Source: a virus (taxonomy: Duplodnaviria; Heunggongvirae; Uroviricota; Caudoviricetes). From it: a stretch of 11,327 bases of DNA. The notes beneath the pieces were generated by a model, which saw nothing but the letters and a program-made list of their open reading frames with translations, was not told where the DNA came from and ran no database searches. The stretch lies in the IMG/VR virus record IMGVR_UViG_2778261591_000005, positions 1 to 11,327 of that record; one strand, 5' to 3'. The translations under genes were made by a program, and so were the position numbers. Below are positions 3,072-10,885 of this stretch, one piece after another (positions within the stretch are counted from its first letter, which is position 1; each line of letters begins with the position of its first letter).

Positions 3072-3272
3072 TTAACTGGATAGTTCTTTTTCAGATGCTG
3101 CTTCAGCATAGCAACGTGCAAATTCAAGAACTTCATCACCTGTTCTTTTTATTGCGTCGTTGTCTGACATTTGTAGTACGATAACTGCGCATAATAAATT
3201 ATGGATATTGTTTGCAAAGGAATCCGGTGCTAGGCATAAGCCTTCATACTTATCATGGATATTGCCAGTCAT
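3072..3272 (-). CDS. small protein (66 aa), paralog of the N-terminal domain of the adjacent tandem-HTH protein
   Basis: ATG at 3272 with AAGGAG 8 nt upstream (the track's GTG at 3314 gives a longer form). Shares DSFA-NI-NLL-AV … G-EV-EF--YA--AAS with residues about 27-75 of the 230-aa protein. Confidence 0.6.
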   Translation of the reverse strand: MTGNIHDKYEGLCLAPDSFANNIHNLLCAVIVLQMSDNDAIKRTGDEVLEFARCYAEAASEKELSS

Positions 3273-3277
3273 TGTTG

Positions 3278-3970
3278 CTACTCCTTTGCTTCTGATTTTC
3301 CCGTTAACAACCACATCAGGTCACAATTAAGCGCACTGGCCAGTGGTACTATCTGATCAGCAGGAACTTCACAGGTGCCGCATTCCCAGTCGTTTATGGG
3401 GTCGCTGTAGGTGTGAATCATGCGTGCCAGGTCTGCTTCTGTTAAGCCCAGTTTTTTACGGGCGCTTTTGATGCGCGCACCAATATTTTCCACATGGACT
3501 TCAGGCGCATTTACGCGAATAACTGACTCGCTGTTTTTTTCACTCAGCAGAGAAAGCGGATCGCATCCCAGGACGTTTGCCAGGGGGGTAAGCATGCTGA
3601 TGGTTGGCTCGTACTCTCCACTCTCCCATTGCAGAATAATTTCTTCATCAAGATCGAGTAGTCTGGCAAGTTCGGTGGTCGTTAAGCCGCAGGCTTCGCG
3701 TTGAGTGCGAAGGTTAACCAGCCAGCTTTCAGGGAAGGATTGTTTTTGTTGTGCAGGAGAAGCCGCAGATAGAGCATATTCATGGATAAATTCCATTACC
3801 TCAATGCCCAGTTCCTTTGAGCGAGCACAATCCAGAAGATGGAATGTGCGTACAGCACTTAGCAAATTTGCAATATTTAATGCAAAGGAATCAAGTTCTA
3901 AGCCCTTAAGCGAAACACAGCCGCAGTTGATAAGATTAGTTGTTTCTGGAGTTGCGTTTAGTGTCTTCAT
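3278..3970 (-). CDS. transcriptional regulator with N-terminal domain of unknown function plus two tandem XRE-family HTH domains
   Basis: 230 aa. HTH1: LRTQREACGLTTTELARLLDLDEEIILQWESGEYEPTISMLTPLANVLGCDPLSLL. HTH2: IGARIKSARKKLGLTEADLARMIHTYSDPINDWECGTCEVPADQIVPLASALNCDLMWLLTG. Own promoter upstream and terminator-insulated from the cI-like gene. Confidence 0.8.
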   Translation of the reverse strand: MKTLNATPETTNLINCGCVSLKGLELDSFALNIANLLSAVRTFHLLDCARSKELGIEVMEFIHEYALSAASPAQQKQSFPESWLVNLRTQREACGLTTTELARLLDLDEEIILQWESGEYEPTISMLTPLANVLGCDPLSLLSEKNSESVIRVNAPEVHVENIGARIKSARKKLGLTEADLARMIHTYSDPINDWECGTCEVPADQIVPLASALNCDLMWLLTGKSEAKE

Positions 3971-4023
3971 ATATCCACCAACAATTTTAAATTGAATAAA
4001 ATCAAGTTATAATTGATGGTGCG

Positions 4024-4052
4024 ATATTATGCTTTGAAAAACAGGCTGTCAA
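4024..4052 (-). promoter_or_regulatory. sigma70-type promoter for the tandem-HTH gene
   Basis: Minus strand TTGACA (4052..4047), 17-nt spacer, TAATAT (4029..4024). Predicted start near 4017, giving a leader of about 47 nt to ATG at 3970. Confidence 0.5.
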
Positions 4053-4082
4053 GAAAAAATTGATATCGTATATTTTAGGCAG

Positions 4083-4103
4083 AAAAAAACGGGCAAAGCC
4101 CGT
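4083..4103 (-). terminator. intrinsic terminator after the cI-like gene
   Basis: Minus strand: stem CGGGC/GCCCG with 3-nt loop followed by a run of 6-7 U (plus strand AAAAAAA-CGGGC-AAA-GCCCG-T). Lies 13 nt beyond the cI-like stop. Confidence 0.55.
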
Positions 4104-4115
4104 TAAAATCAAAGA

Positions 4116-4805
4116 CTAACCAAATCTGTTTATATTGAATGGTACTGATGAGATCACTTTAGACTGGATATAAAGCAGAGCTAACCCCTCTTTTTCGATG
4201 CTCCATGGTTGATAATTAGGGTTATCAGATAACACCATGATTTTACTTCCAATTTTTTGAAGTCTTTTCACGTAGCATTCTCCATCAAAACAAAATGCAT
4301 AAATGCCATCGCCATCAAAATAAGTTACTGTCTTATCGAGAAAAAGAAGGTCGCCAGGTGAGATTGTGGGAGCCATACTGTCTCCTCTGGCGTTACCTAT
4401 TTCTATATTTTTGAATGCCCGATTTCCAACAAGACGTCGGGCATATTCAGGATCAAGTTCTATTGAGCGCACTACATCTATCAAGTCACCACGGACATGA
4501 GTTCCATCACCGCAACTAAACTCAACATCAAGGACATTAAACACGACGCTATCTGTTCTTGTCTGGAGTTTCTCTTGCGAGGAAAAGGTTGGTGAGGAGT
4601 CTTCGCCTAAGAACCAAGATTGTGGATAACCGCTAATCTCTGATAAATGCGCGAGCTTATCACTTCGTGGAAATGTTTTTCCTGTTGTCCAGTACTGCAC
4701 TGATTGCGCACTCACACCTAACTTGCGGGCCAGTTGAGCCTGAGTCCATCCTTTTGCTTTCAGCATCGCGGCTATTCGATTTTCCGTGTTTTTGACGTTC
4801 TTCAT
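4116..4805 (-). CDS. cI-like prophage repressor (N-terminal HTH, C-terminal S24/LexA-type autopeptidase domain)
   Basis: HTH: GWTQAQLARKLGVSAQSVQYW. S24 catalytic motifs: GDSMAPTISPGDLLFLDK (Ser) and YVKRL (Lys) about 36 aa later. Possible Cys-Gly cleavage site in FSCGDG. ATG at 4805 preferred over the TTG at 4811 used by the track. Confidence 0.9.
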   Translation of the reverse strand: MKNVKNTENRIAAMLKAKGWTQAQLARKLGVSAQSVQYWTTGKTFPRSDKLAHLSEISGYPQSWFLGEDSSPTFSSQEKLQTRTDSVVFNVLDVEFSCGDGTHVRGDLIDVVRSIELDPEYARRLVGNRAFKNIEIGNARGDSMAPTISPGDLLFLDKTVTYFDGDGIYAFCFDGECYVKRLQKIGSKIMVLSDNPNYQPWSIEKEGLALLYIQSKVISSVPFNINRFG

Positions 4806-4938
4806 GACCAAATCCTGTGGGTTTCTTTACAAGGATAAATCTTTACTTGATTTTAGTGTATTCGATCCTTTTGCAACTTGCATGTTAATTTAAACTTGAT
4901 GTATTCTTGATTTATAAAGTTAATATTGGTGATTTGTT
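4806..4938. promoter_or_regulatory. divergent promoter/operator region of the cI-like/Cro-like switch
   Basis: 133-bp AT-rich spacer between divergent genes. Three copies of an 11-bp motif: ACTTGATTTTA (4845..4855), ACTTGATGTAT (4894..4904), TCTTGATTTAT (4905..4915), the last two in tandem. Palindromic TGCAA-c-TTGCA at 4871..4881. Candidate rightward promoter TTAAAC-N17-TATAAA (4890..4918). Confidence 0.5.
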
Positions 4939-5211
4939 ATGAAAGGAAATGATTACGACAAACTTCGTACATTAATTGCGCAAAATGCCATAGCGCGAAA
5001 TCTTGGTGTGACGCCGCAAGCGGTGAATCAGTGGTTTTCAAAAAACACAATTCCTGCTCGTTTTGTTTTACGCGTATGTGAAGTAGTTGCATGGAAGGTC
5101 ACGCCACATGACTTAAGGCCAGATCTTTATCCTCACCCTGAAGATGGAATTCCTGATTCGTTACGCAAAATTTCAAATCCAAGCCTAGCGCACACGGAAG
5201 ATGGGAAGTGA
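4939..5211 (+). CDS. Cro-like HTH regulator (YdaS/DUF1019-type)
   Basis: 90 aa. HTH LGVTPQAVNQWFSKNTIP followed by the family-typical VTPHDLRPDLYP motif. Divergent from the cI-like gene. Confidence 0.85.
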   Translation: MKGNDYDKLRTLIAQNAIARNLGVTPQAVNQWFSKNTIPARFVLRVCEVVAWKVTPHDLRPDLYPHPEDGIPDSLRKISNPSLAHTEDGK

Positions 5212-5281
5212 TGGTGGTGATATGAGCGAAAAAATAACTATTAAATACGATGGGACAACCATTTCGATTGCCCCGATCACA

Positions 5282-5575
5282 TTAGCGTTCGCTGAGAAGT
5301 TGTTGGTAAGCCTTAAAGGATGCGAACTGCATTCTACCTTCGGCATTGATTCCAATGCCTTCGCTTGTACACCAAGCGATGAACTCGGCTGTATCCGCTT
5401 CAACTTTAATAACTCGTTGCCCGCCTCTTTCGACACGCTTAATCAATTTTTCAGCGTCGTGTTTCCACTCGGTGTAACTGTCGGAGAGCACATCAGCATC
5501 AGTAAAAATATTTTTGAGCTCATGATACTGAATCGCATCGCGAAACCAGAATAAACCAACGGCCTGAACTTTCAT
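5282..5575 (-). CDS. hypothetical protein (97 aa), orphan gene convergent with the Cro-like gene
   Basis: Strong SD (AAGGAGGttcgacATG). Protein-like composition (MKVQAVGLFWFRDAIQYHELKNIFTDADVLSDSYTEWKHDAEKLIKRVERGG…). Opposite orientation to the flanking rightward operon. Confidence 0.65.
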   Translation of the reverse strand: MKVQAVGLFWFRDAIQYHELKNIFTDADVLSDSYTEWKHDAEKLIKRVERGGQRVIKVEADTAEFIAWCTSEGIGINAEGRMQFASFKAYQQLLSER

Positions 5576-5688
5576 GTCGAACCTCCTTTGGTTCTTTTGT
5601 TTATAGGGATCAAAAGGATAACTGAAGGAAGGTTCGGCACCAATAAGTACGAATGTGCGGAATCTTAAAAGAATTTATCCGTAAGGAG

Positions 5689-6402
5689 ATGGCAGTGAAC
5701 ACCGCAATTTTTAACGGCAAAGCATCCATGACCAGCCTTGAAATCGCAGAGCTGGTGGGTAGTCAGCACTCAGATGTTAAACGTAGTATCGAACGCCTGG
5801 TTGCTAAAAACATCATCCGGAAACCGCCAATGGCTGTTTCCGAGAAAATCAATAACTTAGGTTTTAAAGTTCAATATGAGCATTACCTGTTTGAAGGAGA
5901 ACAAGGTAAACGCGACAGCATCATTGTCGTCGCTCAGCTCTGCCCTGAATTCACTGCTCGCCTGGTAGATCGCTGGCGCGAACTGGAAGAACAGATCCGT
6001 AAGCCAATGAGCGAAATCGAAATGGTTGCCGCGATGGCTCTTGAAGCTGTTCGTCAGCAGAAACGGATCACTCAGGTGGAAGAAAAAGTCAGCCACGTTG
6101 CCGAAACAGTTGAGCAAATCAAAAAGGGCACCATTCGTGAGGGCTATGCCGGATATCGCCAACTGAAAGCGAAAACCGGTTTGTCAGATGATAAATGCCG
6201 CAATCTGGTGAACGCTTATCAAATTCCTACAGACACCCATGAGTTCATGACGCCGGACGGATTGTTGTCACGTCGCGCAATTGTTGCCGTGGAACCTTTT
6301 ATGGCTGCTTTTTATCGGGTTATGGAGGAAGCAGAACCGCGAGGGACTCGCTGGTATCACCCGAAAATGGGGTTATTTCAGGTTATTGGTTGGCAGCGGT
6401 GA
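5689..6402 (+). CDS. Rha-family phage regulatory protein (paralog 1)
   Basis: N-terminal motif TSLEIAELVGSQHSDVKRSIERL matches the Rha-type signature. Start ambiguous: ATG 5653, ATG 5689 (AAGGAG directly abutting) or GTG 5695 (6-nt spacing). Confidence 0.7.
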   Translation: MAVNTAIFNGKASMTSLEIAELVGSQHSDVKRSIERLVAKNIIRKPPMAVSEKINNLGFKVQYEHYLFEGEQGKRDSIIVVAQLCPEFTARLVDRWRELEEQIRKPMSEIEMVAAMALEAVRQQKRITQVEEKVSHVAETVEQIKKGTIREGYAGYRQLKAKTGLSDDKCRNLVNAYQIPTDTHEFMTPDGLLSRRAIVAVEPFMAAFYRVMEEAEPRGTRWYHPKMGLFQVIGWQR

Positions 6403-6425
6403 AAAAAAGCCGGGAGTAACCCGGC
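6402..6425 (-). terminator. intrinsic terminator oriented for minus-strand transcription
   Basis: Minus strand: GCCGGG-uuacu-CCCGGC followed by UUUUUUU. On the plus strand the hairpin is preceded by A7 and not followed by a T-run, so it is unidirectional leftward. Confidence 0.55.
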
Positions 6426-6624
6426 TCACTCAACATCAATAACGGGGAGCTGTTTCGCATAAAACGGCTCCGAAACATCCAAGAACAGTTCTAAAGATAT
6501 CAGCAGCTATATGATCATTTCAAGACCAAATATTGATTCTGCAATTTCGGGACGTTACACTGTCTCTGCACCTTATAAAGCGGGTGCCGGGGGTCGCAGC
6601 CCGGAATTGTCAACGGCGATATAT

Positions 6625-6644
6625 GACGCGCCAGCGTCTTTTTT
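6625..6644 (+). terminator. candidate intrinsic terminator or attenuator on the plus strand between the two Rha-like genes
   Basis: GACGC-gcca-GCGTC followed by TTTTTT. Stem is short (5 bp) but GC-rich. Confidence 0.4.
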
Positions 6645-6810
6645 ATCGTCCGCGCTCACGCACGCCAGAATTATGGTGGGCTGGGCAGGGGAGCCGAAAG
6701 GCTCGCCGGTCTCCGTTGACGCCGGTACTGCGAACCCTGTTCAGTCTGCCACCAGTGAGTTTCGCAGCTCCGGTGGTGGAAGTTTTCCACAGTCAACGGA
6801 GGCTGCCATC

Positions 6811-7362
6811 ATGGCTACGATCCCAACCCTCACTCAACCTGAAATTGCCATCGTTGATGGTCAGGCTGTTACTTCATCCCTGGCTGTTGCCAATTTCTTC
6901 TCCAAGCGTCATGACGATGTACTGAAAAAGATCCGCACGCTTGAATGCTCCGCATCATTCACTGCCCGCAATTTTTCGGTGAGTGATTACACCGATTGCA
7001 CAGGCCGCAAACTACCTTGCTATCAAATCACCCGTGATGGCTTCGCGTTCCTTGCTATGGGCTTTACTGGCAAACGTGCAGCCCGGTTCAAAGAGGCATA
7101 CATCAACGCCTTTAACCAGATGGAGAAGAATTTATCTGGTGCTGACGCGGTTGATATGTCAGCTGTCGCACGAAACGCCAGAGGCGTATACCTGCATTTG
7201 CGTGAAATCCATCAAATCTGGACAAGCCAGCTTTATCCAATGCTTAAGGCCATTGAATCTCCGCTGGCTAGCAAACTGTACGACCGTGTTGGTGATGCTG
7301 TTTTTGGCGCTGCACTTGTTGATTCCAGGCTGAATGGTTCTGACAAGGAGGTTCGCCCATGA
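6811..7362 (+). CDS. Rha-family phage regulatory protein (paralog 2)
   Basis: Motif TSSLAVANFFSKRHDDVLKKIRTL. ATG at 6811 with GGAGG 9 nt upstream. The track's longer ORF from 6511 has a low-complexity G/S/A/P-rich N-terminal extension judged non-coding. Confidence 0.8.
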   Translation: MATIPTLTQPEIAIVDGQAVTSSLAVANFFSKRHDDVLKKIRTLECSASFTARNFSVSDYTDCTGRKLPCYQITRDGFAFLAMGFTGKRAARFKEAYINAFNQMEKNLSGADAVDMSAVARNARGVYLHLREIHQIWTSQLYPMLKAIESPLASKLYDRVGDAVFGAALVDSRLNGSDKEVRP

Positions 7363-7553
7363 TTAGTTACGAAATCATCATCTCCACTACGGAATACAGA
7401 AACGATGTATCAGTTCGCACGGATGTATCTGTCTGGCACCGTCGCTATAAATCCAGAAAAACAGCGGAACTGAAAGCGGCAGAGATGTGTGAAACCATCT
7501 CAATGAAAGGTAGCCCGGTTAAATACGTAACTACGGCGGAGGTGCGTCCATGA
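7359..7553 (+). CDS. hypothetical small protein (64 aa)
   Basis: AAGGAGG 8 nt upstream. ATGA overlap with the Rha paralog 2 stop. Confidence 0.55.
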   Translation: MISYEIIISTTEYRNDVSVRTDVSVWHRRYKSRKTAELKAAEMCETISMKGSPVKYVTTAEVRP

Positions 7554-7774
7554 TCCGCCACATCGTTAATTCCCTGTATCACCGATACAACCGTTGCCCC
7601 CGAGTGGGGCAGTGGTTCGCCACCAGCAACGGTCACGTTCTGCGGGTTTGCCTAGTCAACGCTGAAAGCCAGAAAGTCGTGTGCGAACTACAGGGGCGTA
7701 GCTACACCATCAGTTACCCTCTGGCGGTATTTCTGTCTGGAAAAATGTTTAAACGCCTGGGAGGTGTGTTATGA
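7550..7774 (+). CDS. hypothetical small protein (74 aa)
   Basis: GGAGG upstream. ATGA overlaps at both ends (coupled to the previous ORF and to the O-like gene). Confidence 0.55.
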   Translation: MIRHIVNSLYHRYNRCPRVGQWFATSNGHVLRVCLVNAESQKVVCELQGRSYTISYPLAVFLSGKMFKRLGGVL

Positions 7775-8580
7775 GCATGGAGCTGATGGTGAAAGCGATG
7801 AAAATTCGTGTGGGAAATCCGTTGCGAAAACTGGTTCTGATTAAGCTGGCTGATAATGCCAGCGATCAGGGCGAGTGCTGGCCCAGCTATCAGCATATTG
7901 CTGATCAGTGCGAGATTAGCAAACGTTCTGTGATGAATCATATTACGGCTCTTTGTGAATCTGGACTGGTAAAAAAAGTTTCCCGGAAAGGTGAAAAAGG
8001 TAACTCAAGTAATATCTATCTCCTTCATCTGGATGGTGCAGGAGATTCACTAGGGGGTAGTGCAAATAATTCACTATCTGGTGCAGCAAATTCACCAGGT
8101 AGTGCAGGAGTTGCACCAGGGGGTAGTGCAGGAGATTCACCCAGAACCAGTCACTCTTTTGAACCAGTCAAAGAACCAGTCAATGAATCAACTATTGGCG
8201 CATCCGCTGACGCGTCTGCACCAGCGCGTTCTGCCAGACAGGAATATTCACCGGAATTTGAACAGGCCTGGCAGGAATATCCCAAACGTGCTGGTGGTAA
8301 TTCCAAGTCAGCAGCCTTCAAAGCCTGGAAAGCCCGTATCAGGGAAGGTGTGACACCCGAAACCATGCTCAACGGTGTGAAACGCTATGCCGCCTGGGTG
8401 CGTGTCTCAGGAAATACCGGCACCCAGTTCGTGAAGCAGGCATCGACGTTCTTTGGCCCCGATCGGCACTTTGACGAATCCTGGCAACAGTCAGCAGCTC
8501 CCGGAGGTGGGCGGGGCAAAAGCCTCCCGATCTCGGGATTCAGTGAACAGGACTACGGCTCAACGAACTTCAACTGGTGA
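7771..8580 (+). CDS. phage replication initiator (lambda O-like; N-terminal HTH domain, low-complexity linker, C-terminal domain)
   Basis: N-terminal LRKLVLIKLADNASDQGECWPSYQHIADQCEISKRSVMNHITALCESGLV, a replisome-organiser type HTH. Central G/S/A-rich linker is encoded by iteron DNA. GGAGG SD. Followed by helicase loader and helicase genes. Confidence 0.85.
   Translation: MSMELMVKAMKIRVGNPLRKLVLIKLADNASDQGECWPSYQHIADQCEISKRSVMNHITALCESGLVKKVSRKGEKGNSSNIYLLHLDGAGDSLGGSANNSLSGAANSPGSAGVAPGGSAGDSPRTSHSFEPVKEPVNESTIGASADASAPARSARQEYSPEFEQAWQEYPKRAGGNSKSAAFKAWKARIREGVTPETMLNGVKRYAAWVRVSGNTGTQFVKQASTFFGPDRHFDESWQQSAAPGGGRGKSLPISGFSEQDYGSTNFNW
8034..8140. repeat. iterons (putative origin of replication) inside the O-like gene
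   Basis: Five roughly 20-bp direct repeats with 21-24 bp period (consensus about GGTAGTGCAGGAGATTCACC) at 8034, 8055, 8079, 8098 and 8121. Confidence 0.7.
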
Positions 8581-8597
8581 TTTTGTGGGGTGTGAAA

Positions 8598-9488
8598 ATG
8601 ATTAATTTCCTGAACAAACAACACATGCAACACGACAAAGCGCAATTACTCAACCGCAGTGCGGAGCTGGAGGAGGAGATGCAGTTTGCCCGTGCCGGGA
8701 AGCGTCCGTGGCGCTGTGAGCACTGGCTGGCAAGCGATGAGACTGCAGAGTGTGAGAAGCACGGAAAATATACTCGTCTGGTGTTGAAAGGGCCAGATAT
8801 TCGCGGAGAAACCATCAAACGGGTATCCGGATGTCCGCGCTGCATCGCAGAAGAACTGGATCACGTGCATGACGAATTACGCGCCCTGAAGGTTCGTGAA
8901 TTACTCGATCAGGCCGGTATTGCCCGCCGCTTTGAGAACTGCGAGTTTGAGAACTATCAGGCTGTGAATGCCGGGGCTCAGCGGAATCTTGATGCCTGCC
9001 AGCGTTATGTCGATGCCTGGAAGGATCACCTCGCGGCGGGTACCAGCATGATCATGATTGGCAATTGCGGTACCGGGAAAAATCACCTGGCTGTATCAAT
9101 GGCAAAAAATATTATTCGCCACCACCTGGCGACCGTCGAAATTACGGATGTTATGCGACTGACCCGCGCTGTGAAAAATACATGGCGTCACAATTCTGAA
9201 CGCACTGAAGATGAAGTTATTGACCATTTTGTATCACTGGACCTGCTCATCATTGATGAAGTCGGTGTTCAGTTTGGCACTCCTGCCGAGATAACCATCC
9301 TGCAGGAAATCATCAACGCGCGTTACGAAAGTATTCTGCCAACAATTCTGATCAGCAACCTGACGTTTGACCAGCTTAAGGAGTCCATTGGTGAGCGAAT
9401 TGTAGATCGCGTTACTGACGGCGGGCGTAACCGCCTGGTGTTTGGCTGGGAGAGCTACCGGGCAAATATCGGAGGTGTTGCCGCATGA
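8598..9488 (+). CDS. DnaC/IstB-like AAA+ helicase loader
   Basis: Walker A GNCGTGKNHLA, Walker B LLIIDEVG, sensor ISNLT. N-terminal region carries Cys/His pairs (CEH…CEKH…CPRC) suggesting a zinc-binding module. Start is ATG 8598 or GTG 8577 (overlapping the O-like stop). Confidence 0.85.
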   Translation: MINFLNKQHMQHDKAQLLNRSAELEEEMQFARAGKRPWRCEHWLASDETAECEKHGKYTRLVLKGPDIRGETIKRVSGCPRCIAEELDHVHDELRALKVRELLDQAGIARRFENCEFENYQAVNAGAQRNLDACQRYVDAWKDHLAAGTSMIMIGNCGTGKNHLAVSMAKNIIRHHLATVEITDVMRLTRAVKNTWRHNSERTEDEVIDHFVSLDLLIIDEVGVQFGTPAEITILQEIINARYESILPTILISNLTFDQLKESIGERIVDRVTDGGRNRLVFGWESYRANIGGVAA

Positions 9489-10885
9489 CCAGCCAGAACA
9501 ACCCGGCATGGCGTAACGATGACCTGGAAGGTGCGGTGATTGGCGCGTTTTTTCTGCGTGGGGCTGATCCGGAAGTGATGGATATTCTGGCCACGCTTCC
9601 GGCGGATGTATTTTTCGTGCGTCAGTACCGGGATATTTACGCGGGGATTTGCAGACAGGCCCGCGTATCCGGCGTCATTGACCCCGTGCTGCTGTGCAAT
9701 GAGATGCCGGAACTTGCCCCGGTGATTACCGACACCGGGCGCAAAACCTGGGTGAAGTCTTCACTGGAGCACTATGTTGCAGCGCTGCGACGCAATGCCG
9801 CACTGCGCGATGCAGAAAAAACACTGACTGAAGCATTACAGAATTTACGTGATGCACATACCTGCGAAGCGGCAGAAGATGCCCTGAAGGATGCGCAGAA
9901 CATGATGGCCTCACTGTCGACCGGAAAGGGCGTCATTCAGCCGGTTCACATTGATGATGTCCTTCCGGAAGTGGTCGACCGTGTTGAATGCCGCAATCAG
10001 GGACTGGAGAAATCCAGGGCGCTGATGACCGGTATTGATGAACTGGACGCAAAAACGGGCGGTATGGAGCCCGGAGACCTGGTATTCATTGCCGCCCGTC
10101 CTTCGATGGGGAAAACCGAACTTGCGCTGGACATCATCGACAAGGTGACTGAGCAGGGGCATGGCGTGCTTCTGTTCACCATGGAGATGGCGAACATCCA
10201 GATTGGTGAACGTATGGTGTCTGCTGCCGGTGGAATGCCGGTATCCCGTCTTAAGTCTGTTGCCCGTTTTGAAGATGAAGACTGGGCGCGTTTCTCACAG
10301 GGCGTGGGACGAATGACGGGGCGTAATATCTGGATGGTGGACCAGGCAAATCTGACCATTGATGAGATATGTGCAACCACGAGGTACCACCGGATGAAGC
10401 ATCCGGAAACGGCGCTGGTGGTGGTCGATTACCTCGGCCTGATTAAAACCCGCAGCACGGGGCGTCACGACCTTGCGGTGGGGGAAATCTCAAAGGGACT
10501 TAAAAGCCTGGCAAAATCCGGCGGTTTTCCGCTGATTGCTCTGAGCCAGCTCTCCCGCGGCGTGGAATCCAGACCCAATAAACGTCCCATGAACTCAGAC
10601 CTGAAAAACTCCGGGGAAATCGAGGCTGATGCCGACATCATTCTGATGCTTTACAGGGATGAGGTGTATAACCCGGATACACAGGCGAGAGGCATAGCAG
10701 AAATCAACATCACGAAACAGCGTAATGGCACGCTCGGGACCATTTACCGGCGTTTTCATAACGGACATTTTCTGCCTGTGGACCAGGAGAGTGCCCGGGT
10801 TCTTTCCACACCCATGACGCCGGGCAATCCGCGCAGATACAGCAATAACCGCATGTCGGGCAGTAAAGCGGAGCGTTTATTTTGA
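9485..10885 (+). CDS. DnaB-family replicative DNA helicase
   Basis: 466 aa. Walker A ARPSMGKT, Walker B VVVDYLGLI, ALSQLSR arginine-finger region, and the DnaB signature DLKNSGEIEADADIILMLYRDEVY. ATGA overlap with the loader gene. Confidence 0.92.
   Translation: MTSQNNPAWRNDDLEGAVIGAFFLRGADPEVMDILATLPADVFFVRQYRDIYAGICRQARVSGVIDPVLLCNEMPELAPVITDTGRKTWVKSSLEHYVAALRRNAALRDAEKTLTEALQNLRDAHTCEAAEDALKDAQNMMASLSTGKGVIQPVHIDDVLPEVVDRVECRNQGLEKSRALMTGIDELDAKTGGMEPGDLVFIAARPSMGKTELALDIIDKVTEQGHGVLLFTMEMANIQIGERMVSAAGGMPVSRLKSVARFEDEDWARFSQGVGRMTGRNIWMVDQANLTIDEICATTRYHRMKHPETALVVVDYLGLIKTRSTGRHDLAVGEISKGLKSLAKSGGFPLIALSQLSRGVESRPNKRPMNSDLKNSGEIEADADIILMLYRDEVYNPDTQARGIAEINITKQRNGTLGTIYRRFHNGHFLPVDQESARVLSTPMTPGNPRRYSNNRMSGSKAERLF

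Follow-up and report, generated by a model that had tools for sequence, protein, structure and literature searches.

In phage lambda, a cI gene encoding a helix-turn-helix (HTH) domain plus an S24 self-cleaving domain diverges from cro, and 17-bp partly symmetric operators of one consensus overlap promoter elements in two clusters, one between cI and cro and another beyond cI, where the leftward early promoter lies; the operator sequence changes with immunity type. Lambdoid repressors act at both OL and OR; in phage 933W, which is without OL3, the switch does not depend on cooperativity of the lambda kind between neighbouring sites (PMC3317979). The 11.3-kb stretch of DNA analysed here (the window) is, by gene context, the immunity region of an E. 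coli lambdoid prophage and resembles lambda in each of these respects; it also resembles 933W, a relative among E. coli Stx phages with a set of OR sites and an OL that has no third site. Pfam matches place an HTH plus S24 repressor gene divergent from a small Cro-type HTH gene, and a gene with two HTH domains (the tandem-HTH gene) beyond cI. Comparison of related loci leads us to conclude that the CI/Cro switch of this prophage very probably uses 17-bp operators at OL and OR in a lambda-type arrangement.

A prophage adjoining mlrA in E. coli O39:NM is 99.8% identical to the window, Stx-converting phages with annotated CI and Cro are ~81% identical, and the window immunity type is common to a set of Stx2-converting phages of non-O157 STEC. 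The region is present in 197 E. coli genomes. Our comparison set comprised 88 related loci with CI 75–100% identical; a scan of genome contigs gave 3 related loci, and the diversity came from viral contigs. Column invariance was judged in alignments of 10 diverse loci. The predicted CI joins an N-terminal HTH to a UmuD-like C-terminal S24 self-cleaving peptidase domain, with conserved catalytic motifs (GDSM serine, KR lysine) and a Cys-Gly candidate cleavage site; its recognition helix, QSVQYW, is conserved in relatives and different in the heteroimmune locus L007. Phage CI proteins outside its own group are at most 39% identical to it, and we found no close characterised relative. The nearest solved relative of the Cro-like protein is a prophage Cro (3bd1), and its recognition helix is conserved together with CI type.

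The initial annotation had described four copies of an 11-bp CTTGAT-core motif, and reading the sequence bears out all of them: ACTTGATTTTA at 4845-4855 on the plus strand with its reverse complement at 3997-4007, ACTTGATGTAT at 4894-4904 and TCTTGATTTAT at 4905-4915. How significant they are depends on what they are measured against. Across the whole window, neither the 11-mer with up to 2 mismatches (5 matches, 3.7 expected) nor CTTGAT (10 matches, 6.9 expected) is enriched, and 85 exact 11-mer pairs occur, which justifies that annotation's own caution that such a pair is not rare by chance. Within the two intergenic regions tested (3971-4115 and 4806-4938, each ~29% GC) there is a strong signal: CTTGAT/ATCAAG is found 4 times where 0.18 would be expected, a count that 0 of 5,000 shuffles reach, and TTGAT/ATCAA 7 times against 1.27 (P = 0.0006, shuffles), while 3.2% of shuffles give an exact 11-mer common to both regions. 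The enrichment over shuffled sequence that had been proposed as a check is present in these regions and absent from the window as a whole.

On the sequence evidence, the CTTGAT-core motif forms one half of a predicted 17-bp, roughly palindromic operator with the consensus ATCAAGTT-a-AACTTGAT, its dyad partners exactly 7 bp apart. The pattern ATCAA-N7-TTGAT with up to 2 mismatches has 15 matches in the window against 8.2 expected, 6 of the 15 in the two intergenic regions. When a position weight matrix (PWM) was trained solely on loci outside the E. coli clade, the six best dyad 17-mers were the top six of the window's 11,311 positions. Three of them (4835, 4884 and 4914) lie in the cI–cro spacer as ~17-bp partly dyad-symmetric sites of one consensus; the others lie between cI and the tandem-HTH gene, where 4001, with a perfect core, and 4048 form a second cluster on the other side of cI, where the leftward early promoter is predicted, accompanied by the weaker 3980. 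Centre-to-centre distances are 47 bp from OL1 to OL2, 49 bp from OR-a to OR-b and 30 bp from OR-b to OR-c; three adjacent sites per cluster at ~23–24 bp were not found. The OL1–OL2 distance equals ~4.5 helical turns, so cooperative binding of pairs, as in lambda, cannot be taken for granted.

Across the 88 related loci the dyads and the 47/49/30-bp spacings are fixed while the flanks have diverged. Columns invariant in the 10 diverse loci comprise the OL1 and OL2 cores, OR-a, CTTGCATG together with OR-b, and parts of OR-c; in every homoimmune-type locus the strict dyad pattern occurs solely at OL (47–48 bp apart) and OR-c. We considered whether AT-rich promoter DNA alone, in which TTGAT and TTGAC act as −35-like elements, could produce this likeness without a dedicated operator, as the base composition of both intergenic regions, the coincidence of the right end of OL2 with the pL −35 and the unremarkable window-wide counts might suggest. 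Composition-matched shuffles, however, give 0.18 CTTGAT and 0.06–0.5 PWM matches where we observe 4 and 6, and neither the 7-bp dyad gap, nor the spacings kept while intervening DNA diverges, nor the disappearance of the motif once CI type changes fits such an account, which we regard as extremely unlikely.

Lambdoid control regions often contain sites for IHF, whose core consensus, WATCAA-N4-TTR, is asymmetric (WATCAANNNNTTR). The AATCAA half-site fits the WATCAA core, and the sites might on that ground serve a host architectural protein such as IHF and not a phage repressor. But OL1 and OL2 miss WATCAANNNNTTR on both strands (TAA or TTC at TTR, or C at W), sites of the OL1/OL2 type are dyads whereas IHF sites are not, and a host-factor site would not be swapped for unrelated motifs with repressor type, making this explanation exceedingly improbable. 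A LexA box, judged by sequence reading, did not fit.

Table 1 Features of the predicted OL and OR control regions (window coordinates)
Feature	Position	Strand	Details
Tandem-HTH gene, 230 aa	3278..3970	-	Pfam HTH_3 at residues 87-138 and 164-227
Possible weak extra operator AACAATTTTAAATTGAA	3980..3996	.	PWM score 16.0 / 12.5
OL1 ATCAAGTTATAATTGAT	4001..4017	.	perfect ATCAA-N7-TTGAT cores, 0 mismatches; top PWM score in window
pL-like sigma-70 promoter	4024..4052	-	-35 TTGACA 4052-4047, 17-nt spacer, -10 TAATAT 4029-4024
OL2 GTCAAGAAAAAATTGAT	4048..4064	.	1 mismatch; PWM score 21.0 / 17.6
Intrinsic terminator 3' of cI	4078..4104	-	stem 4104-4088, then T run
cI-like repressor gene, 229 aa	4116..4805	-	ATG at 4805; Pfam HTH_3 and Peptidase_S24
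OR-a (OR3 position, adjoins cI) ATAAATCTTTACTTGAT	4835..4851	.	1 mismatch; PWM score 17.0 / 17.5
Probable -10 of cI maintenance promoter (pRM)	4850..4855	-	TAAAAT; columns 4851-4853 and 4855 invariant
Probable pR	4878..4905	+	-35 TTGCAT 4878-4883, 16-nt spacer, -10 TGTATT 4900-4905
OR-b (OR2 position) GTTAATTTAAACTTGAT	4884..4900	.	PWM score 19.3 / 17.6
Orphan half-site TCTTGATTTAT	4905..4915	+	11 bp past OR-b right half, without partner half
OR-c (OR1 position, adjoins cro) ATAAAGTTAATATTGGT	4914..4930	.	degenerate; PWM score 12.7 / 14.2
Cro-like gene, 90 aa	4939..5211	+	Pfam YdaS_toxin and P22_Cro; YdaS/P22-Cro type HTH

On the OL side, a leftward promoter close to consensus, TTGACA-17-TAATAT, is flanked by sites 4001 and 4048 and has 10/12 consensus matches in a promoter scan; its TTGAC and −10-like hexamer stand at the same positions in diverged relatives, and OL2 overlaps its −35. 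On this arrangement the tandem-HTH gene is predicted to head a pL-like operon controlled through OL. The position of the −10 leads us to infer a transcription start near 4017, so that OL1, which includes the inverted motif copy, would span about +1 to +17 of the transcript and the copy itself, read as 4007-3997, about +11 to +21; its earlier placement near the start of the tandem-HTH transcript therefore stands. The OL1–OL2 spacing is kept in relatives, at 48 bp in L005. Site 3980, 21 bp from OL1 in the leader, may be an extra operator, an assignment we hold as uncertain: it is confined to the E. coli clade (ATCAATTTAAAATTAAC in L005) and absent from L008–L010 and L084–L093. The cI terminator is found in the window type and in L008–L010, with other sequence in its place in L001, L005 and L006.

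On the OR side, the right half of OR-a plus its flank is the motif copy 4845-4855, and TAAA and CTTGATTT are invariant in the 10 loci; the TTTTA flank of the 11-mer is presumably conserved because the probable −10 of the cI promoter lies there. OR-b, almost wholly invariant and 49 bp from OR-a in all loci, has the copy 4894-4904 as its right half and fills the 16-nt spacer of the probable pR. We infer the exact pR and pRM from such patterns. Both match the consensus weakly (TTGCAT/TGTATT for pR; for pRM the −35 is poor), and neither was called in the promoter scan. TTGCAT-16-TGTATT is preferred as pR: CTTGCATG is invariant in 10/10 diverse loci though it lies outside the 17-mer, and the −10 position reads TGTAAT, TATTAT, TATCCT or TGTAAC in relatives. 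The alternative, TTTAAA(4889)-18-TATAAA(4913), is not kept in L008–L010; TTGATG-19-TAATAT was also considered as pR, but its mRNA would begin downstream of the conserved GGTG ribosome-binding site, and TTAACA-17-TCGAAT was rejected as pRM, its −10 not being conserved in L008. The earlier location of the two tandem copies inside the spacer of a Cro promoter hinges on the promoter called, and a different one is favoured here. The sequence TGCAA-c-TTGCA, put forward as a palindromic target of the LexA-like repressor, is present one base from where it had been placed (at 4872-4882, not 4871-4881); its left arm is not conserved, so we discarded it as a CI site, and its right arm, part of the invariant CTTGCATG, is probably better read as the pR −35. 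OR-c has counterparts in relatives (ATCAATTATAGCTTGAT in L008, ATCAAGTTAATATTGGT in L017), where strong homologous sites lie 30–31 bp from OR-b.

The initial annotation had read the CTTGAT copies as direct repeats recognised by the tandem-HTH protein, a single chain that would thereby cross-regulate the switch and its own leader. The protein has an ~82-aa N-terminal helical domain followed by two Cro/C1-type HTH domains and matches PHROG 4836, 'CII-like regulator'; the two domains in one chain resemble the DNA-binding domains of the 434 and P22 C2 repressors (the nearest solved relatives of each), and one true direct-repeat pair, CTTGATGTATTCTTGAT, lies at 4895-4911 with an 11-bp separation. 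However, 17-bp inverted repeats account for three of the four copies, each being a half-site, and direct repeats at fixed spacing were not found beyond that single pair in the window, which itself depends on the non-conserved orphan copy.

Two swap comparisons bear on the choice between CI/Cro and the tandem-HTH protein. In 13 loci without any tandem-HTH homologue, 2 OL and 2–3 OR sites are kept with their spacing, whereas four heteroimmune phages (L007, L011, L012 and L013) differ in CI and share the double-HTH domains at 84–96% identity; in these the best PWM score is at most 8.5, CTTGAT occurs 0–1 times and no CTTGAT direct repeat was found; L007 has its own 13-mer common to OL and OR. The sites thus do not co-occur with the tandem-HTH protein across genomes, both the 13 loci and the four phages contradicting such an association, and operator sequence follows repressor specificity. 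In both comparisons the motif tracks the CI/Cro module. Operators and the recognition helices of CI and Cro are conserved together; since CI and Cro always travel together, comparison cannot separate them. As a direct-repeat code, the tandem-HTH reading is very unlikely, and by these comparisons the target DNA of that protein is not the CTTGAT sites. The N-terminal domain of the tandem-HTH protein was also considered as an immunity-specific element and rejected: the L007-type N-domain is also found in the first pL gene of L008 and L010, two loci whose CI is of the window's type.

Conservation in homologous regions extends to three of the four motif copies, the exception being the orphan half-site, of which 4905-4911 falls outside the dyad operator model and which no well-scoring 17-mer includes. 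It reads CTTGTG, CTTGAA or TTTGAT in 15/54 close relatives, is absent in 13/13 distant relatives and has been lost in some loci even where CI is identical. Together with the OR-b right half it makes an 11-bp direct repeat across the probable pR −10/start region, and we consider it quite unlikely, though slightly less so than the direct-repeat code, that it is a separate target of a pL-encoded HTH regulator or a site of non-canonical Cro binding, in which case the left operon might feed back onto pR. Candidates for such a regulator are the tandem-HTH protein or its single-HTH variants. The orphan copy is CTTGAT in 21/21 loci with the full tandem-HTH gene and 0/13 without the gene family, and in 38/54 loci with single-HTH variants, patterns that are confounded by shared ancestry.

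Returning to operators of the CI/Cro switch, we propose that in the lysogen dimers of the HTH plus S24 repressor CI would bind the dyads, covering the −35 and start site of pL at OL and, at OR-b and OR-c, the pR spacer together with the pR start region. OR-a, lying across the start of the cI promoter, could mediate autoregulation, or shut-off by Cro. Self-cleavage of CI triggered by the SOS response would release pL and pR together, so that the tandem-HTH protein would be made as an early lytic product. As first supposed, the motif does provide a regulatory link between the cI/cro control region and the beginning of the tandem-HTH transcript; what had been taken for a new circuit joining the switch to an accessory module is more simply read as control of pL by the immunity repressor, with the tandem-HTH gene as first pL gene, an early lytic gene under CI control.

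We found no description of operators for this immunity type in the literature searched by operator sequence and phage name, and judged from sequence the switch is of a familiar kind, with an immunity specificity not yet characterised. This immunity type is shared by Stx2_112808, Stx2_14040 and others, phi467 and PhiR49_2, whose CI proteins are 88–99.6% identical to that of the window. These phages have the same OL1/OL2 and OR-a/b/c sites and differ in the first pL gene, which encodes the full tandem HTH or single-HTH variants, and in the cI terminator, which is replaced in some. CI repression governs toxin release in Stx2-converting phages of this type, and the operator consensus with the OL/OR map therefore offers targets for studying their induction and superinfection immunity.

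The single-HTH N-terminal domains of the 434 repressor and P22 C2 act as dimers on palindromes, whereas the tandem-HTH protein has two domains per chain behind an extra N-terminal domain. Relative to lambda, the operator sequence is unrelated and OL has two strong sites and no more; the sites are non-adjacent (47 bp at OL, 49 and 30 bp at OR, against ~23–24 bp), a spacing also unlike the adjacent sites of 434 and P22, and both sequence and spacing differ from those of 933W. The first pL gene encodes a two-HTH regulator in place of N, the Cro protein belongs to the YdaS/P22-Cro type, and the replication genes are of a non-lambda type. Conceptually the switch adds nothing to the lambda paradigm save its unusual, wide-spaced site geometry.

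The region at 3200-5300 is a lambdoid immunity region. Its identity is 99.8% with the prophage adjoining mlrA in E. coli O39:NM F8704-2 and about 81% with a group of Stx-converting phages whose genes are annotated CI and Cro, and genes for Rha, Ash-Rha, HTH_36/DnaD-like, IstB-like and DnaB proteins follow its cro-like gene. In the S24 domain of CI the GDSM and KR motifs are conserved, and Cys-Gly is a candidate site for cleavage; the recognition helices of CI (QSVQYW) and Cro (PQAVNQW) are kept across loci of the same CI type and differ in a heteroimmune relative. The nearest phage CI proteins outside this group are at most 39% identical to that of the window.

Genes, predicted promoters, proposed operator sites and motif copies of the immunity region
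Feature	Position	Strand	Remarks
Tandem-HTH protein, 230 aa	3278-3970	-	two Cro/C1-type HTH domains
CI-like repressor	4116-4805	-	HTH and Peptidase_S24
YdaS/P22-Cro-type protein	4939-5211	+	
Weaker site	3980-3996		
OL1	4001-4017		
OL2	4048-4064		
OR-a	4835-4851		next to cI
OR-b	4884-4900		
OR-c	4914-4930		next to cro
pL-like sigma-70 promoter	-35 TTGACA 4052-4047; -10 TAATAT 4029-4024	-	17-nt spacer; 10/12 consensus
Intrinsic terminator of cI	4104-4088		closes cI
Candidate pR, best-conserved	-35 TTGCAT 4878-4883; -10 TGTATT 4900-4905		16 nt filled by OR-b; TTGCAT invariant
Candidate cI promoter	-10 TAAAAT 4855-4850	-	conserved; OR-a over its start
Motif copy, reverse complement of ACTTGATTTTA	3997-4007		within OL1; half of 17-bp inverted repeat
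Motif copy ACTTGATTTTA	4845-4855		in OR-a; half of 17-bp inverted repeat
Motif copy ACTTGATGTAT	4894-4904		in OR-b; half of 17-bp inverted repeat
Motif copy TCTTGATTTAT	4905-4915		

The initial annotation had claimed four copies of an 11-bp motif with a CTTGAT core, and on reading the sequence we found all four in place. Across the window neither the 11-mer (5 matches, 3.7 expected) nor CTTGAT (10 matches, 6.9 expected) is enriched, and the whole window holds 85 exact 11-mer pairs. Nine of the 10 CTTGAT copies fall within 3647-4911. The intergenic regions on either side of cI (3971-4115 and 4806-4938; GC 29%) together have four occurrences of CTTGAT or ATCAAG against 0.18 expected, a count reached in 0 of 5000 shuffles; an exact 11-mer common to both regions arises in 3.2% of shuffles. 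The accompanying caution, that the argument rests on clustering, was therefore well placed.

The inverted copy sits in a dyad, ATCAAGTTATAATTGAT, whose cores (ATCAA-N7-TTGAT) are perfect. Allowing up to two mismatches, a dyad search returned 15 matches in the window where 8.2 were expected; six are in these intergenic regions (at 3980, 4001, 4048, 4835, 4884 and 4914). A weight matrix trained solely on sites of distant loci outside the E. coli clade placed these same six 17-mers at the top of 11,311 window positions; a second matrix agrees, and composition-matched shuffles of both regions gave 0.06-0.5 matches against the six observed. Dyad search and matrix ranking thus make three of the four copies halves of 17-bp inverted repeats. 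As read from the sequence, the motif is most probably a half-site of CI/Cro operators at OL and OR, a new specificity in a very well known kind of switch.

OL2 overlaps the pL -35, and OL1 starts 6 nt past the -10, at about +1 to +17 of the predicted transcript. With the cI terminator, the pL promoter and its flanking sites, the 145-bp spacer consists of a terminator and, beyond it, a pL/OL unit, which makes the tandem-HTH gene the first pL gene. The candidate pR would put OR-c at about +2 to +18; pR, pRM and every start site are predicted positions. The candidate -10 of the cI promoter accounts for conservation of the 11-mer's TTTTA flank at OR; at OL this flank varies among relatives, so that the OL-side match beyond about 8 bp is coincidental.

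We compared 88 loci with CI 75-100% identical (annotated phages and E. coli genomes, three other enterobacterial genera and 80 viral contigs), scoring column conservation in alignments of 10 diverse representatives. In these 10 loci both half-site cores (ATCAA and TTGAT) are invariant at OL1 and OL2, as are two pL -10 positions; at OR the invariant columns are TAAA and CTTGATTT in OR-a, CTTGCATGTTAATT..CTTGAT (OR-b together with its -35) and scattered positions within OR-c. Intervening and flanking DNA diverges. Matches to the strict pattern [AG]TCAA-N7-TTGA[TC] are confined to OL1, OL2 and OR-c, and spacings are kept (OL1-OL2 47-48 bp, OR-a/OR-b 49 bp, OR-b/OR-c 30-31 bp). Distant loci give a very clear site consensus, ATCAAGTTAAACTTGAT and GTCAAGTTAAACTTGAT. 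OR-a and OR-b each have an imperfect half (xTAAA and GTTAA, respectively) that is itself invariant, which may reflect tuned affinities or an overlap with elements of the promoters. The proposed link between the cI/cro region and the tandem-HTH leader holds as a regulatory one, made by dyad sites at both OL and OR that are most probably operators for CI/Cro.

The copies had also been read as direct repeats that the tandem-HTH protein could recognize. Thirteen loci of the window CI type lack a tandem-HTH homologue, their first pL genes encoding small non-HTH proteins, and keep two strong OL and two or three OR sites; 54 further loci with single-HTH variants also keep the sites. In the reciprocal case, four heteroimmune phages (L007, L011, L012 and L013) encode the same C-terminal double-HTH segment beside unrelated CI/Cro pairs, with 84% identity over residues 83-230 in L007 and DNA identities of 96.7%, 92.8% and 83% in L011, L012 and L013; their best matrix score anywhere is at most 8.5, their two intergenic regions hold zero or one CTTGAT, and they have no CTTGAT direct repeat. 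L007 has its own, different 13-mer common to its OL and OR. These two natural swaps, sites without the gene and the gene's HTH domains without the motif, show that the motif travels with CI/Cro rather than with the tandem-HTH protein; CI and Cro always co-occur, and as partners they cannot be separated by this comparison. The regulatory link is supported and the direct-repeat code is not, three of the four copies being inverted-repeat halves.

CTTGATGTATTCTTGAT (4895-4911) is the sole real direct repeat. Matrix scoring gives its second copy (4905-4911) no dyad partner, and that copy reads CTTGTG, CTTGAA or TTTGAT in 15 of 54 close relatives, some with CI identical to the window's; in CTTGTG variants the adjoining OR-c left half reads consensus ATCAAG. 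CTTGAT is absent from this position in 13 of 13 distant loci and present in each of the 21 loci where the tandem-HTH gene is full-length, an association that cannot be separated from shared ancestry. A tie between this orphan copy and the tandem-HTH protein is kept as an alternative reading of low probability. At OL in Stx2_112808 (2350-2385) and phi467 (2448-2490), AT-rich DNA replaces the cI terminator, with an extra orphan half-site (AAACTTGATTTT; TTTTACTTGATTTG) 9 or 22 bp past the right half of OL2; full operators thus repeatedly have an orphan ACTTGATTT half-site beside them, at variable spacing. The palindrome TGCAA-c-TTGCA, once offered as a candidate target of a LexA-like repressor, is present at 4872-4882, one base from its assigned position, but its left arm is not conserved and the proposal fails.

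The tandem-HTH gene is a mosaic: its double HTH (residues 83-230) is 84-96% identical in the four heteroimmune phages, but its N-terminal stretch of ~82 residues differs there; the joint lies at a conserved QREACGLTT. In two related loci (L008 and L010) the first pL genes are homologues of the L007 N-domain, and N-domain type is not strictly tied to immunity type. Just downstream, a 66-aa ORF (3072-3272(-); PHROG 4587, unknown function) has about 48% identity to residues 27-70 of the N-terminal domain, so this operon also encodes that domain as a small protein of its own. In E. coli O39:NM F8704-2 the equivalent of 3278-3970 (6079-6771) is annotated as two CDS, of 147 aa and a 71-aa C-terminal piece; the gene is probably disrupted there and intact in the window. 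A published 'CI clade VIII', which has two HTH domains but lacks a peptidase (PMC8951638), might represent tandem-HTH genes of this kind annotated as CI.

Directly after cro, a plus-strand ORF (5201-5554) overlaps a minus-strand ORF (5282-5575; 97 aa, hypothetical), the latter being the one in the RefSeq annotation of a near-identical genome; neither has a Pfam match, and a PHROG scan of the plus-strand ORF, the sole one of the pair scanned, gave none. The Rha-to-DnaB replication module (5653-10885(+)), which includes the IstB-like ATPase and the DnaB helicase, is not of the lambda type and resembles the 'Eru' replication units of Stx phages (PMC8951638). Rfam gathering-level matches to isrK (6568-6644(+), 58.7 bits) and C4 antisense RNA (6669-6756(+), 78.8 bits) sit within the 5' part of an Ash/Rha-family ORF (6511-7362). 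The pair looks like antisense control of the P1/P7 immI type acting on an antirepressor-like gene; if true, this would be a second immunity-control layer in this prophage.

In a lysogen, CI dimers would occupy OL1/OL2 and OR-b/OR-c and block pL and pR. The conserved but imperfect site OR-a, which covers the predicted start of the cI promoter, may serve autoregulation or Cro-mediated shut-off. RecA-stimulated CI self-cleavage would derepress pL and pR, presumably yielding the tandem-HTH protein early in lytic growth. In the literature searched, no paper describes operators of this immunity type; one survey covering the regulatory regions of Stx phages sorts CI clades and replication modules into classes and gives no operator map (PMC8951638). 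The logic of the sites is that of lambda OL/OR, although the operator sequence differs, only two OL sites are strong, and a two-HTH regulator, not N, comes first in pL. Phage 933W likewise lacks OL3 and has no adjacent-site cooperativity (PMC3317979). Site spacing in the window is wide and conserved, whereas lambda, 434 and P22 have adjacent sites.
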